A DNA stretch of 64,000 bases from an uncultured archaeon. Lineage in GTDB: Archaea > Iainarchaeota > Iainarchaeia > Iainarchaeales > CSSED10-239. The notes below the pieces were generated by a model. The model made no database searches and was not told where the DNA came from. It worked only from the letters and a program-made list of their open reading frames with translations. Location: NCBI GenBank assembly GCA_964586355.1, contig CAZPGO010000011.1, positions 6,634 to 70,633 of the forward strand, written 5' to 3'. The translations under genes and the position numbers were made by a program. Below are positions 11,607 through 38,576 of the stretch, piece by piece; position 1 is the stretch's first letter; each line of letters starts with the position of its first letter.

Positions 11607-11822
11607 ATGCCACCTAAGATACTAAAAACAGTAAAACTAAAAACAGCATCAAAAAAACCAATTGTTAGAGAAAAAAGAAAAGAAAATACATCGCCTAATC
11701 TACGAGGAGTTTCTGTAGAAGATGTTGAAAATTTTTTAAAAGAGAGAAACCGTCGTTTTTCAATTCAAAGAAAAAGATCTGAGATTACAGATTCTAAAAA
11801 AAGACAAAAGCAAAAATATTAA
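11607..11822 (+). CDS. small lysine-rich hypothetical protein
   Basis: 71 aa, begins MPPK, very basic. No family recognised. Confidence 0.3.
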   Translation: MPPKILKTVKLKTASKKPIVREKRKENTSPNLRGVSVEDVENFLKERNRRFSIQRKRSEITDSKKRQKQKY

Positions 11823-12136
11823 TTTATTTTTGTTTTTTTAGAAATTTTAAAAAATTATAATCTATATATTATTAAAAAGAAAAAAATGAAGTCTGATATG
11901 CCTTTAAGATTAACCCCAAAAAAATGAGTAGAATAAAAAAAAGTATAATGGTAAAAAAAAAGTGTCACAAATAATTCTAAAATAGCATTAAAAGGCATGA
12001 TCCTTGAAGATGTAACTAAATTAATATTAGAACAGAAAAAAACATTAGATTCAGAAAAAAATGTTTTATTATTTCCAAAACAAAGAATAAAAAAAAGATA
12101 AATTATATTTTATATTTTTCTAAAACATGATTAAAT

Positions 12137-13318
12137 ATGAACATATTAGTAATTAATGCAGGCAGCAGTTCTTTAAAATTTCAATATATTAATCCCATCT
12201 CTCAAGATGTTTTAATTAAAGGACTTTATGATGGTCTAAATAGAAAAGATCACAAAGTAAAATTAAAACTTACAATAAAGGATTCCAAAGAAACAGAAGA
12301 AAAAACAATTAAAAACCATTCAGCTATCGTTGATGATCTTTTATCAAAGTTAATTGAAAAAAAAATAATCTCAGACTTTTCAGAAATAAAATACATTGGA
12401 CACAGAGTTGTTCATGGAGCAGAAGATTATTCCCAGACAACAGAGATAACAGATTCTATGTTAAGACATCTAAAAGCAATTTCTTTTTTAGCACCTTTAC
12501 ATAATCCAGTAAATATTGAATATATAGAGATCTTAAAAGAAAAATTAAAAGATGCAAAACAATTTGCTGTATTTGACACCGCTTTTCATCAAACAATCCC
12601 TCCGGAAATCTATCTTTATGGTCTTCCAAAAGAGTTATATGATAAATATAAGATAAGAAAATATGGTTTTCATGGAATTAGTCATAAATATGTGTCCTAT
12701 AAAGCAAGCGAATTATTAAATAAAGATTATAATTTATTAAAAATAGTTAATTGTCATTTAGGAAATGGTCAAAGCATTTGTGCTATTTTAAATGGAAAAA
12801 GTTTTGATACTTCTATGGGCTTTACTCCTTTAGATGGGCTTCCTATGGGTACTAGAAGTGGAAGCTTTGATCCTGAAATTATTCTTTTTCTTTTAGAGCG
12901 TGGTTATTCTAAAGAACAAATAAAAACTTTAATAAACAAGGAATCAGGGCTAGTAGGTATTAGTCAGATAAGTGCAGATCACAGAAAAATTGAAGAGTTA
13001 TCTATGGCTGGAGAGGTTAATGCAAAACTAGCTAATGATATTTTAGTTAAAAGAATAGTCTCTCTTATAGGAAGTTATATTGCAGAAATGAATGGTGTCG
13101 ATGTTATTGTTTTTACAGGAGGTATTGGAGAAAAATCTGCATATTTGAGAAAATTAGTTTTAGATCATTTTAATTATCTAGAATTATTTTGTGATGATGA
13201 ACCAAATTCTGCTCATGAAACAATAATTTCAAAACCAAATAGTAAAGTTAAAGTTATGGTAATTCCAACTAATGAAGAATTACAGATCGCAAAAGAGGTT
13301 TATGATATTATAAAATAG
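12137..13318 (+). CDS. ackA: acetate kinase
   Basis: N-terminal ILVINAGSSSLKF, plus HRVVHGA, FDTAFHQT, YGFHGISH, GGIGE. Confidence 0.9.
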   Translation: MNILVINAGSSSLKFQYINPISQDVLIKGLYDGLNRKDHKVKLKLTIKDSKETEEKTIKNHSAIVDDLLSKLIEKKIISDFSEIKYIGHRVVHGAEDYSQTTEITDSMLRHLKAISFLAPLHNPVNIEYIEILKEKLKDAKQFAVFDTAFHQTIPPEIYLYGLPKELYDKYKIRKYGFHGISHKYVSYKASELLNKDYNLLKIVNCHLGNGQSICAILNGKSFDTSMGFTPLDGLPMGTRSGSFDPEIILFLLERGYSKEQIKTLINKESGLVGISQISADHRKIEELSMAGEVNAKLANDILVKRIVSLIGSYIAEMNGVDVIVFTGGIGEKSAYLRKLVLDHFNYLELFCDDEPNSAHETIISKPNSKVKVMVIPTNEELQIAKEVYDIIK

Positions 13319-23291: not shown

Positions 23292-24434
23292 ATGCTTAAT
23301 AAAAGATCTGTTTCCCCATTGATCGCAACAATTTTATTAGTTGTTCTCTCTGTTATATTGATCACTGTTGTTTTAACATGGGGGAAAGGTTTTTCAAAAG
23401 AGAAATTAGATCAAACAAAAATAAAAGATACAAGTTATATTGGTTTAATAACAGCAAAACAAGTTTCAGATAATGCTTTTTATTTAATAACAACAAAAAA
23501 CCTGCCATCTACTGAAATAATAGCATACAAAATTATTCCGTCATTAGAGCATCCTATCTTTTATTTACTTGAAGATAAGATCTATACTTTATCTGAATCA
23601 GTTAACTTAACACCAAACTCATCTACTCTTTTTACAATAGATTGTGCTCCAGAAAAAAAATATACTGTTGTTTTAATTACTAGTGATAATAAATATATTC
23701 CAATAGAAATAAACAGCAATCTTTCTTACACTTATCTTGGTTGTATTGAAAAAAGTTGTATGGCCTATAAAGAGAAATTTGTTAACTTGCCAGATGGTAA
23801 TTATCCAATACAAATAGATAGTTTTCTATTTGATGTTTATTGTGACATGACAACAGATGGTGGTGGTTGGGCAATTGTTGCAACAAATAAAAATAATAGT
23901 AATCCAAATCATTTATCTGCAGCAAGTAGAGAAGTTTTTATAAATAATAATTATTCTGTTATTCCAGAAATAAGTACAATAGATAATGTTACAAAAGAAG
24001 GATACATTGCTTTAAAATATTGGACAGATCTAGCAAAAACAAAAGAACTAAGATTTGTTGTTGGGCAAAACACTCTTAAACTTGGTGGTTGGGAGTTTAG
24101 ATCTGGACCAAGTTCTGATTGGTTACATTATTGGAATTATGCTGAATGTACTGGTCCTTATGCTGATAGTTGTTGGGCTGCTAGTGATAATTGTGGTTTT
24201 ACTTTTGACACACCCAGTGGAGAAAAAAACAGAGGCAGCATTTGCTATGGTTGGGCATATACAAGCAGCAACAACATATTTGCAAAAAAAAATTCTCCAA
24301 GATCTGGGTATTGGTTAGGTTGGTATTATAATGTGAGTAGATTTAATTTATTAGGAAATGCGCCAGACACATTGTCTCCAGAATGGATGGATGTTGCCGG
24401 TGCTGTTGGCGACGCTCATATTGCTGTAAGATAA
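23292..24434 (+). CDS. archaeal type IV pilin-like (class III signal peptide) protein with C-terminal fibrinogen-related domain
   Basis: N-terminus MLNKRS/VSPLIATILLVVLSVILITVVLTWG. C-terminal half has the FReD signature FDVYCDMTTDGGGWAIV. Confidence 0.7.
   Translation: MLNKRSVSPLIATILLVVLSVILITVVLTWGKGFSKEKLDQTKIKDTSYIGLITAKQVSDNAFYLITTKNLPSTEIIAYKIIPSLEHPIFYLLEDKIYTLSESVNLTPNSSTLFTIDCAPEKKYTVVLITSDNKYIPIEINSNLSYTYLGCIEKSCMAYKEKFVNLPDGNYPIQIDSFLFDVYCDMTTDGGGWAIVATNKNNSNPNHLSAASREVFINNNYSVIPEISTIDNVTKEGYIALKYWTDLAKTKELRFVVGQNTLKLGGWEFRSGPSSDWLHYWNYAECTGPYADSCWAASDNCGFTFDTPSGEKNRGSICYGWAYTSSNNIFAKKNSPRSGYWLGWYYNVSRFNLLGNAPDTLSPEWMDVAGAVGDAHIAVR
23307..23393 (+). repeat. pilin N-terminal module, copy 1 (paralogous to 36320..36406)
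   Basis: SVSPLIATILLVVLSVILITVVLTWGKGF versus SVSPLIATILLIVVSVIIVTIVLTWGKGF. Shared nucleotide strings include ccattgatcgcaac. Confidence 0.8.
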
Positions 24435-28160: not shown

Positions 28161-28260
28161 AATAATGTCTTAAAATATATTAAGTGCAATAATAAATATA
28201 AAAAACAAGACAGAATATAATTTAATTGATAAGGTTATTTTTAAAAATAGAATAAATGAA

Positions 28261-35360: not shown

Positions 35361-35957
35361 ATGAATTTTGAATTAGTAAATATAGAGTGTTATGATGTTT
35401 TTAAAAAAGAACTAAAAGAGATAGGCATAGAGGATATTTTTTTTTATAAAAAAATTTTTAAAAAAGAAGATTTTCTAATAGATTTCAATTTAAAAAATAG
35501 CAACTCTTCAAAAATATTTTTATTAGAGGATATTAATTTAGTTAATTTTGCACCAAGTAATTCTTTATTAGTATTTAAAGCAGAAAAAAGTTCTGATCTT
35601 TTTTTAGCAATAAAAAATAAAAAAATAAAAGCAATAGTTCATCCAATAGGAAATGATCTTATATTTGATGAGGCTTCTGCAAATTTATTAAAAGAGAATA
35701 ACAAACCTGTTATTTTTAATTTTTCTGAATTTAAAAAAAACACCTATAAATCCATAAAGCAGTCACAATTTATTATAGATCTTTTGTTAAAAAAACAAAT
35801 TCCTTTTTTCTTTCTTAGTTTTGCAGAAAAAAAGAATGATGTTATTCAACCAATTATTTTAGAGAATTTTTTAAAAAACTTTAATTTAAATGCAGAATTT
35901 ATAAAAAAACAAATGCAAAAAGAAACTTTTGAAAAAACATGCCTAAACAAAAAATAA
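35361..35957 (+). CDS. rnp3: probable RNase P protein component 3 (Rpp30-like)
   Basis: Position immediately upstream of Pop5 in the exosome superoperon. The C-terminal IPFFFLSFAEKKNDVIQP resembles the Rpp30 SSGA region. Sequence is divergent. Confidence 0.45.
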   Translation: MNFELVNIECYDVFKKELKEIGIEDIFFYKKIFKKEDFLIDFNLKNSNSSKIFLLEDINLVNFAPSNSLLVFKAEKSSDLFLAIKNKKIKAIVHPIGNDLIFDEASANLLKENNKPVIFNFSEFKKNTYKSIKQSQFIIDLLLKKQIPFFFLSFAEKKNDVIQPIILENFLKNFNLNAEFIKKQMQKETFEKTCLNKK

Positions 35958-36271
35958 ATGTTATTAGACCAACATTAAGACATAAGAAAAGATATGTTAC
36001 TTTAAAGTTCATTAATCCAATTATAGATCTAGATAAGCAAAAAATCTTTTGTGCACTTTACAAATCTTTGCAAAAATCTAATGGTATTTTTGTACAGATC
36101 TCAACAAACATTACTGTCTTAGAATATGATTTTGAAAACAAAACTGCACTAATAAGAATAAACAAAGAATATTTATCAGAATTTTTGGGATCTTTGTTCT
36201 TTTTAGATGGCGATTATGGTATTATTAAGATAATTTCTGTTGATTCAACCATAAAACAAGCCAACAAATAG
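35939..36271 (+). CDS. rnp2: RNase P protein component 2 (Pop5-like)
   Basis: N-terminal RPTLRHKKRYVTLKF is the Pop5 signature; 110 aa. Confidence 0.7.
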   Translation: MPKQKINVIRPTLRHKKRYVTLKFINPIIDLDKQKIFCALYKSLQKSNGIFVQISTNITVLEYDFENKTALIRINKEYLSEFLGSLFFLDGDYGIIKIISVDSTIKQANK

Positions 36272-36301
36272 TTTTTATAAAGTTTGTATGTTTATTTTTT
36301 T

Positions 36302-36616
36302 GTGTTTTTAAGATATAAATCTGTATCTCCATTGATCGCAACGATTCTATTAATAGTTGTCTCTGTAATTATAGTTACTATTGTTTTAACCTGGGGCAAA
36401 GGTTTTGTAACAGATTCTTTTTCTCAAACAGATTCTTTTAGTATTCAAAAAAATCTTAAAAATCTAGAGTTTATTAAATTTAAAAATGGAATAAATGGAA
36501 GATTCTTTTTTGATTATTATCCACCCAAAAATAAAGATCTAAATTTTACTGTTGTTAGCTACGCTTATAATGATTATCCTTTAGTTCCATTAGAGCCAGA
36601 AAAAACCATTTCTTAA
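36302..36616 (+). CDS. type IV pilin-like N-terminal module (class III signal peptide), ends at in-frame TAA
   Basis: A GTG 36302 start gives MFLRYKS/VSPLIATILLIVVSVIIVTIVLTWGKGF, parallel to ORF 23292. The ORF track uses TTG 36284. Confidence 0.6.
   Translation: MFLRYKSVSPLIATILLIVVSVIIVTIVLTWGKGFVTDSFSQTDSFSIQKNLKNLEFIKFKNGINGRFFFDYYPPKNKDLNFTVVSYAYNDYPLVPLEPEKTIS
36320..36406 (+). repeat. pilin N-terminal module, copy 2 (paralogous to 23307..23393)
   Basis: 24 of 29 aa identical to copy 1, with conserved nucleotide strings. Confidence 0.8.
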
Positions 36617-36679
36617 ATTGGCACTTTTTATTTAGATCTTGGTGTTGTTGATACTGGCCCTTTTATTATTAATCTTGTT

Positions 36680-37711
36680 TTGTCTAATGGATCTTATTTA
36701 TCTTTTAAAAATATAACTAGTGTTAATAGATCTCCATCATCTAATGATTGCCCAGAAGGCTATATTCCAGTTCCAGGAAATTATCTTTATGACACTGTTG
36801 GTTCCAAGGGTGGTTTTTGTGTTCCAAAATATGAAATGAAATTAGATCGAAATAATGATGGTTTTGGTAATGTATCATCTGAATTTGGTTGTGAACTTTC
36901 GACCTTTAATGTCTGGAATTATAATTCTATAGATTGTAATACAGGCGATTTGGTTTCTTCAGCCAATGGTTCGCCAATTGTATTTTCTGGTTTAAATAAT
37001 GCAATTACTTCTTGTGAATCATTAGGAGAAAATCATCATTTAATGACTAATGATGAGTGGATGACACTTGTAAGAAATATAGAAATTATTCCTCAAAATT
37101 GGTATGATCCTGAAACAGATAGTTGGGGTGTTTCAGTAACAGATATTGGAAATGGAAATAAATTGCCACAAGGTCAAAAAACACTAAATCCTAATTTTTG
37201 TTTAGATGCATCTCAAGATGATGAAGACGGTTATTTTGGCATAAGCAATCCAAATAATAGTCATAGAAGAACTTTATACTTAACAAACGGAGAAGTTATT
37301 TGGGATCTATCCGGAAATATATTTGAATTTGTTGATTTGGTTATTAAAAAAAAAGATCTTCCAGATCTAGTTAATTATGATGGGACAGAATATAATAGTT
37401 CAGTTATGTTGGATGGAGATTATGCTTTAAACGGTGCTAATAAATATGCTAATTGGTTTGATTTAGGTAACACTACTTTATATTATAAAGATTTATATTT
37501 ATTGACAAATAACAATTATACTAGAGAAAATGGAAATGTTGGTTATTTATATACTCTTAGTAATAGAGCAAGTACAGATGAAACAGAAATTGTTTTTATT
37601 AGAGGGTGTCATTGGGCAGACACAACAAATTGTGGTATTTTAACCGTGCTTACAAATAGAACATATTCTGGAACTGATCCTGCTGGTGCTCGTTGTGTTT
37701 ATTACCCTTAG
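36680..37711 (+). CDS. FGE-sulfatase / C-type-lectin-fold domain protein (same frame as 36302..36616)
   Basis: CPEGYIPVPG...FCVPKYEM, HLMTNDEWMTLVRN, WDLSGNIFEFVD, IRGCHWAD and GARCVY follow the FGE/SUMF1-type pattern. Confidence 0.65.
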   Translation: MSNGSYLSFKNITSVNRSPSSNDCPEGYIPVPGNYLYDTVGSKGGFCVPKYEMKLDRNNDGFGNVSSEFGCELSTFNVWNYNSIDCNTGDLVSSANGSPIVFSGLNNAITSCESLGENHHLMTNDEWMTLVRNIEIIPQNWYDPETDSWGVSVTDIGNGNKLPQGQKTLNPNFCLDASQDDEDGYFGISNPNNSHRRTLYLTNGEVIWDLSGNIFEFVDLVIKKKDLPDLVNYDGTEYNSSVMLDGDYALNGANKYANWFDLGNTTLYYKDLYLLTNNNYTRENGNVGYLYTLSNRASTDETEIVFIRGCHWADTTNCGILTVLTNRTYSGTDPAGARCVYYP

Positions 37712-37859: not shown

Positions 37860-38576
37860 TTGATACCAATTTCTGGAAACGCAGCAGCATATGATAGATC
37901 AATAACAGTTTTTAGTCCTGAAGGACATCTTTACCAAGTAGATTATGCTTCAAAAATAATTGAAAAAGGGTCTCCTGCAGTAGCAGTCATATATAAATCA
38001 GGAATAATTATTGCTGCAGATAAAAAAATATTATCTCCATTAGTAATACCAGACTCAGTAGAAAAAGTATTTAAGATAGATCAAAAAATATGGACTGCTT
38101 GTGCTGGATTAATTGGAGATGGAAGAAGATTGGTTGATTTTGCTAGGCAAATAGCTCAAGAGAATAGAACCTATTATGATGAAGCAATAGAAGTTGAGAC
38201 CTTAGTAAAAAGAATAGCATCAATAATACAATATTTTACACAATATGGTGGAGGAAGACCATTTGGTGTTTCCTTAATAATAGCTGGTGTTGATTCCTTA
38301 GGCAAACATATATTTGAAGCAGAACCAAGTGGAGCAATTACAGCATATAAAGCACTAGCAATTGGTCAAAACAGACAAAAGTTAATGGACTTTTTAGAAA
38401 AACATTATAAAGAAACATTATCTGCTGAAGATGCAATTGAGCTTTCTTTAAAAGCCCTATCTTTAAATTTAGAAGACAAACAAAAACTAAATCCAAAGAG
38501 TATTGAAGTAATTAATATTACAGAAAATAATAGCGAACATATAATACCTTTAAACAAATACTCAAAATATTTTTAA
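37860..38576 (+). CDS. psmA: proteasome alpha subunit
   Basis: YDRSITVFSPEGHLYQVDYA signature. TTG start 6 nt after AGGTGA. Confidence 0.9.
   Translation: MIPISGNAAAYDRSITVFSPEGHLYQVDYASKIIEKGSPAVAVIYKSGIIIAADKKILSPLVIPDSVEKVFKIDQKIWTACAGLIGDGRRLVDFARQIAQENRTYYDEAIEVETLVKRIASIIQYFTQYGGGRPFGVSLIIAGVDSLGKHIFEAEPSGAITAYKALAIGQNRQKLMDFLEKHYKETLSAEDAIELSLKALSLNLEDKQKLNPKSIEVINITENNSEHIIPLNKYSKYF

Follow-up and report, generated by a model that had tools for sequence, protein, structure and literature searches.

A probable recent nonsense pseudogene of a modular pilin with a lectin-type head between Pop5 and PsmA of an Iainarchaeota archaeon

The DNA analysed in our study is a 64,000-nucleotide stretch (the window) from an uncultured archaeon, and the gene in question lies in it between the genes of Pop5 and PsmA in the archaeal exosome/proteasome superoperon. 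It would encode a pilin-like protein with a lectin-type head and is cut by a single in-frame TAA at 36614-36616. On comparison with its relatives, this is one gene and not two, interrupted by a nonsense change. The locus is quite probably a recent nonsense pseudogene, fixed in the population, of a modular archaeal pilin with a lectin head of the type used by diversity-generating retroelements (DGRs). The homolog loci assign the family to Iainarchaeota, and for one same-family genome the coordinates of the match are those of Ca. Forterrea multitransposorum CP045477.1.

In the window, the open reading frame (ORF) 36302..36616, which is open from 36284, closes with the TAA at codon 105, and the ORF 36680..37711 (TTG start, 343 aa) is found in the same frame. 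Nothing other than the stop and 21 open codons (IGTFYLDLGVVDTGPFIINLV) parts the two ORFs, which confirms what an earlier reading made from the letters by themselves (the sequence-only reading) had described, and the motifs quoted there are present in the translation. An open run of 21 codons is not significant alone, its chance at 27% GC being about 0.15 by composition (our own estimate). What decides for one gene is homology. Since 18 of the 21 residues after the stop (36617-36679) are identical to those of the intact orthologs, this stretch is homologous stalk and not an intergenic spacer. Moreover, a search of 5.8 billion proteins with the 469-aa product, in which the TAA is read as a residue, gave more than 80 homologs, each a single ORF of about 440-470 aa, that cover 99-100% of the query; the read-through product, which had been expected at about 470 aa, is thus matched end to end.

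The nearest three orthologs (P0001-P0003; 78-81% identity, 468-469 aa) are intact and occupy the same slot, the gene order at the ortholog loci being ArgRS, Rpp30-like, Pop5, the gene itself, PsmA, SBDS, Csl4/Rrp4-like (ECR1_N), Rrp41 and Rrp42. At the stop site the window reads TCT TAA ATT against TCT TCT CTT in the orthologs, so that three adjacent bases are changed within a stretch that is otherwise 97% identical. The codon at this site is TCT (Ser) in the loci L001, L003 and L004, and Ser, Thr or another residue across the family. No internal stop was found among the full-length matches from 30 related species genomes, no split version of the gene among the matches and ortholog loci examined, and no intact protein more than 81% identical to the read-through product in the 5.8-billion-protein collection; an exact look-up of the 343-aa downstream product returned no record. 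As the family norm is a single ORF, the window copy is taken to be interrupted. The same-slot genes of the relatives carry a sense codon for Ser within single ORFs, and the arrangement that would speak for a pair, two separate genes with starts of their own, was not seen in them.

The stop is real and common to every assembly examined. It was followed in assembled contigs, and the TAA is kept in the Joint Genome Institute (JGI) contigs of 3300077522 and 3300077564 (L110/L114 and L116), in the Logan contigs of SRR2986055 (L111) and SRR2989655 (L112), and in all Logan contigs of four runs (X1-X4) from two studies; the gene calls on nine contigs include exactly this truncated product of 104 aa. 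No intact allele was found in any assembly examined, at the resolution of contigs, below which rare variants would fall. A scan of JGI metagenomes with a degenerate 44-mer, which near-identical records may escape, returned the L004 contig only. A sequencing or assembly artefact, with a sense codon in the organism itself, was one of the options of the sequence-only reading; no point was found in its favour, and as the TAA recurs in assemblies that are independent of one another and come from several samples and different pipelines, its probability is practically nil. Population heterogeneity, another of these options, is not borne out by an intact allele in any assembly, rare variants below the contigs being still possible, whereas the option of a recent nonsense mutation is supported by the intact orthologs together with the stop in all assemblies. 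The features of the locus are listed below in the order of their coordinates.

35939..36271, + strand: Pop5 (RNase P subunit), upstream neighbour; PF01900 at E 9e-7, 86-92% identity to the same-position gene in L001-L004
36274..36281, + strand: TATA-box-like element TTTATAAA; conserved, putative function
36302..36613, + strand: 5' fragment of 104 codons, predicted class III signal and hydrophobic helix (residues 1-43) and first four stalk strands; from PF07790, UpsA, 8fk7 and AlphaFold2 (AF2)
36607..36707, + strand: variable patch of 101 bp; 10 of the 15 differences from a near-identical 20.7-kb contig
36614..36616, + strand: in-frame TAA, codon 105; TCT (Ser) in orthologs
36617..36679, + strand: 21 open codons with stalk homology; 18/21 residues as in orthologs
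36680..37711, + strand: 3' fragment, 343-aa ORF, end of the stalk and predicted Cys-rich head of the lectin/formylglycine-generating enzyme (FGE)-sulfatase fold (fused residues about 145-469); from homologs, AF2, TaqVP and Mtd
37592..37699, + strand: region equivalent to a variable repeat (FIRGCHW...GARCV); no template repeat in the genome
37712..37716, + strand: run of five T (T5) after the TAG stop; read from the sequence
37860..38576, + strand: PsmA (proteasome alpha subunit), downstream neighbour; PF00227 at E 1e-52, PF10584

The true start of the gene is 36302, where the window has GTG and all other haplotypes, like the orthologs, have ATG. The TTTATAAA box ends about 21 nt before this start, directly after the Pop5 stop codon, and is kept in the window, L110, L001, L003 and L004. 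It is TATA-box-like, and the general geometry of archaeal promoters suggests a promoter of the gene's own and a leaderless mRNA. At the other end, the T5 run right behind the TAG stop is possibly an archaeal oligo-T terminator.

Structure prediction of the fused sequence, which the sequence-only reading had put forward as a check, gave a model in three parts, in which residues 10-43 form a helix, residues 58-138 a beta-sandwich of seven strands, and the C-terminal part a large domain (AF2 on 68 homologs; predicted local distance difference test 86, predicted template modelling score 0.85). The N-terminus MFLRYKS-VSPLIATILLIVVSVIIVTIVLTWGKGF combines a basic leader of few residues with a peptidase-site motif and a hydrophobic helix, as is found in archaeal pilins. 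This N-terminal module matched UpsA with an E-value of 2e-4 and PF07790 with 0.0016 (19.7 bits, under the gathering cut-off of 25.2 bits), and the family profile matched the Pyrobaculum pilus 8fk7 at E 2.8e-6 over residues 4-53. The top PDB matches of the front part in Foldseek are the archaeal type IV pilus subunits 8fk7, 6w8u and 8q30, and the AF2 strands along with these matches place a beta-sandwich after the helix, as in solved archaeal pilins. In its leader (RYKS/VSPLIATILL), hydrophobic helix and beta-sandwich, the protein thus resembles by fold and profile the type IV pilins of P. calidifontis (8fk7), P. arsenaticum (6w8u) and Sulfolobus acidocaldarius (Aap, 8q30), whereas it differs from them in the head that adds about 320 aa at its C-terminus and in the sub-threshold PF07790 match; its assembly into a filament would be putative.

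For the head, Foldseek found the DGR variable proteins TaqVP (Thermus aquaticus, 5vf4; E 2e-5, probability 1.0, template modelling (TM) score on the target 0.38) and Mtd (Bordetella phage, 1yu4; E 9e-3), the query being a model of three domains, which lowers the TM scores; the family profile matched 5vf4 weakly (E 0.004). PF03781 was not matched by the window protein at E <= 0.1 with the 343-aa, 364-aa or 469-aa translation, and it was matched by 44 of the 68 aligned homologs (best E 3e-11). The fold of the FGE/C-type lectin (CLec) type is hence assigned from homologs, structure and a paralog, and the proposal of such a head in the sequence-only reading holds for the fold and does not hold as a Pfam match of the protein itself. 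The likeness to the single ORF at 23292-24434, which had been proposed as a mirror of the fused product, holds in the same way for one part, the pilin module being common to both; the head there is fibrinogen-like with a GGGWT motif (NF040941, E 6e-13; PF00147) and not of the FGE/CLec fold.

The head has six invariant cysteines, which suggest extracellular disulfides, and the 3' fragment has no signal peptide of its own. Taken together, profiles and model describe a modular, type IV pilin-like archaeal surface protein with a predicted class III signal and helix, a seven-strand stalk and a Cys-rich head of the C-type-lectin fold, probably an adhesin of this DPANN archaeon (Iainarchaeota, Forterrea-family). 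The name 'SUMF1/EgtB/PvdO family nonheme iron enzyme' in the source annotation derives from the domain, and a name such as 'FGE/SUMF1 enzyme' is misleading for a product that is probably a binding head. Bacterial modular type IV pilins of the Streptococcus sanguinis PilB/PilC type also join a complete pilin module to a ligand-binding head; in comparison, the window protein has the archaeal pilin signal and a CLec head of the DGR type. The same lectin-like head was also seen in Patescibacteria of the candidate phyla radiation (Saccharibacteria, Moranbacteria, Parcubacteria) behind an N_methyl pilin signal (PF07963 + PF03781; examples P0088, P0089, P0091, P0096 and P0098, loci L016-L080), so that ultrasmall archaea and ultrasmall bacteria have both reached the pilin-plus-CLec design.

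The genome (904 kb in 54 contigs, 26.8% GC, 86% complete) contains about 29 pilin-signal genes, small pilins of 150-175 aa being common; among the 29 are two intact paralogs of the window gene with 47-48% identity, at C47:13587-14900 (448 aa) and C30:103009-104325 (466 aa). The paralog on contig C30 (47% identity) is the target of a DGR. Its variable repeat (VR), C30:104211-104341 in the last 130 bp, pairs with a template repeat (TR) at C10:6887-6757, all 14 of the 14 core mismatches fall on TR adenines, and a reverse transcriptase (RT, PF00078) is encoded beside this TR at C10:5722-6330; contigs C30 and C10 join, as the end of C30 overlaps C10:7843-7745. No template repeat matching the window gene was found in the genome. 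Its VR-equivalent region (37592..37699) is nearly unchanged among orthologs, with the change G436C in the RGG motif specific to the window, and by these comparisons the window gene is a non-diversified member of the family. It therefore shares the head fold with TaqVP and Mtd and is unlike them in the absence of a template repeat, in the nearly unchanged VR-equivalent, in its archaeal pilin anchor and in being broken by a stop. A second RT (PF00078) at C18:10942-11559 marks DGR no. 2 of this 0.9-Mb genome (C18:10942-13627), in which a gap-free 104-nt repeat pair, 11753-11856 and 12535-12638 (81% identical), lies where another gene with a pilin signal has its 3' end.

The part downstream of the stop has evolved like a coding sequence. 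Comparison of the window with the orthologs gives a ratio of nonsynonymous to synonymous substitution rates (dN/dS) of 0.19-0.27 for this part, comparison of the intact orthologs with one another gives 0.26-0.35, and the unique changes on the window branch (32 nonsynonymous : 28 synonymous) are in the same ratio as those of the relatives (25 : 22). At columns with at least 90% conservation the window deviates in 5 (including G436C), the range in the family being 0-10. No relaxed constraint past the stop was detected by dN/dS or by the conserved columns, and no second lesion in the 1.1 kb past it. The window gene has diverged from its relatives by a synonymous distance of about 0.6. As the downstream part has no excess of replacement changes, the break is recent or function has been retained, and of these two the comparative data favour a break that would be young compared with the separation of the window gene from its relatives.

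The immediate surroundings of the TAA are variable between haplotypes. Over 20.7 kb, 15 positions differ between the window and JGI contig L114; 11 of these fall in 36302-36707 and 10 within the 101 bp of 36607-36707, with 4 in the remaining 20.3 kb, and the chance of such clustering is about 1e-16 (our own binomial estimate). This patch has thereby a divergence of 10% between otherwise near-identical haplotypes. Three haplotypes are found, the window type, the L110 type and a recombinant form in runs X1 and X2 (depths 25.5 versus 63.2), and the TAA-ATT core is common to all three. Six of the variable sites are synonymous and three codons carry conservative replacements, the residue in the L110 type being in most cases nearer to that of the orthologs; the window haplotype carries M122I and E136K, which are absent from the majority haplotype. 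Mutagenesis by a DGR was considered as the source of the stop and patch and rejected, the site being about 1 kb from the VR-equivalent, its changes not adenine-specific and no TR matching. Gene conversion from the two paralogs was likewise rejected as the source of the TAA-ATT and the patch, for the paralogs differ at those bases. With changes that are not adenine-specific and no paralog match, neither process explains the patch, which is probably a recombination mosaic around a fixed null allele. The mosaic may reflect the spread of this allele, with drift possible too.

The proposed course of events is as follows. The nonsense change TCT CTT to TAA ATT at codon 105 would have inactivated the gene in the population. 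Translation from the leaderless start would yield 104 residues and stop midway through the stalk, and the lectin head, lacking a signal peptide, would presumably not be made or not be exported, so that no functional product, full-length or split, is expected. Since the genome holds two intact paralogs (one of them DGR-diversified) and many other pilins, loss of the gene would be tolerable. The locus resembles ordinary prokaryotic nonsense pseudogenes of accessory and surface genes in its single in-frame stop, the sense codon in orthologs, the intact paralogs and an accessory surface function; it is unlike them in the three-base change inside a 101-bp patch and in being fixed in all haplotypes seen. 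For the annotation, the two called ORFs are to be merged and flagged as a pseudogene. It would be one more lectin-headed pilin gene, seen just after its inactivation, of an Iainarchaeota genome in which both genes of this kind and DGRs are plentiful, and the turnover of surface-adhesin genes in these episymbiont-like archaea would involve loss in addition to DGR diversification.

Several points weigh against this account. The absence of relaxed constraint and of a second lesion would look the same in a functional gene; the stop is common to at least three recombinant haplotypes with mostly synonymous flanks and so could be older, or be kept; a rare intact allele could be present below the resolution of contigs; a suppressor tRNA could have been missed in a genome that is 86% complete; and re-initiation at ATG 36665 or TTG 36680 is formally possible. 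Two accounts in which the locus remains functional draw on these points. The 'expression valve' of the sequence-only reading supposes that a near-cognate tRNA decodes the TAA at low frequency, by leaky or programmed readthrough, and yields a little full-length pilin-lectin. The fixation of the stop across at least three haplotypes, the flanks, in which the 21 post-stop codons and their surroundings differ mainly synonymously or toward ortholog residues, and the lack of decay downstream are all consistent with it, although a young pseudogene predicts the same downstream pattern. Moreover, the codon is sense in the orthologs and in all other family members, so that a conserved stop, as would be seen in programmed recoding, is absent, and TAA is the stop codon that the genome uses most, closing 460 of the 708 long ORFs (65%); genome-wide reassignment of TAA is ruled out by this count. 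No suppressor tRNA with a UUA, CUA or UCA anticodon was found by ARAGORN among the 33 tRNAs of the 86% complete genome, and we know of no description of programmed TAA readthrough in archaea. A genome screen for same-frame ORF pairs gave 84 pairs, mostly ordinary neighbouring genes. Readthrough is hence regarded as very improbable. Its more specific form, in which a leaky stop is maintained on at least three recombinant haplotypes with coding-like evolution on both sides and a trace of lectin-headed pilin is displayed, has a very slim chance; if true, the stop would act in this DPANN archaeon to throttle the translation of an adhesin.

In the other of these accounts, the 104-aa product would be used as a minor pilin of short length, and a separate re-initiation, at ATG 36665 (majority haplotype, 16 codons past the stop) or TTG 36680 (window, 21 codons past it), would give the head. 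Start codons shortly past the stop, the lineage-specific change of TTA to TTG at 36680-82, the calling of both pieces by gene callers and the many small pilins of 150-175 aa in the genome speak for such a split. However, residue 105 lies between the predicted strands 95-103 and 107-112, inside the sandwich 58-138 and not at a domain border; the cut after strand 4 of seven would leave the 104-aa product with an incomplete stalk, and neither piece holds a complete domain. The head would have its six invariant cysteines and yet no signal peptide. No ribosome-binding site of the GGTGA type was seen on reading the sequence before ATG 36665 or TTG 36680, and no relative has a split gene. A functional split therefore seems very unlikely.

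A variant of the pseudogene reading takes the null allele to be adaptive, for instance by loss of a viral receptor or of a host-mismatched surface protein, and spread by recombination. The clustering of 11 of the 15 differences in the 5' part of the gene, ten of them around the TAA, the sharing of only the TAA-ATT core by the three haplotypes and the change of three neighbouring bases, which resembles a patch that was imported or copied from a template, are all in line with it, and the cluster around the shared stop could be the footprint of recombination spreading the allele. Against this, no donor was found (the paralogs differ at the variant bases and the metagenome scan gave the L004 contig only), few haplotypes are at hand, and in a small, clonal population a neutral loss could just as well become fixed through drift or hitch-hiking. 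An adaptive null allele is accordingly a possible but rather doubtful refinement of the nonsense pseudogene.

The position of the gene in the superoperon was also compared. Its flanks are confirmed as Pop5 (PF01900) and PsmA (PF00227), as had been read from the sequence. Among the other genera of this family, the distance from Pop5 to PsmA is 115-250 bp, and the pilin-lectin gene between the two is therefore taken as an insertion, in agreement with the sequence-only reading. Most species of the window's own genus have 600 to more than 1500 bp between the two genes, filled in the loci L093-L099 by one or two unrelated multi-pass membrane proteins of 140-210 aa (motif ...GIK(V/I)ISTYYII...), and the pilin-lectin gene is found in this slot in the window and its closest relatives only. 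Judged from these gene orders, the Pop5-PsmA junction is an insertion hot spot in the window's genus.

A second in-frame TAA was observed in the window at 28165-28173, where ATG TCT TAA places a stop at codon 3 of a restriction endonuclease-like gene and an open homologous frame follows. Its TCT TAA A context equals that at 36611-36617, and this repetition is probably a coincidence in a genome of 27% GC.

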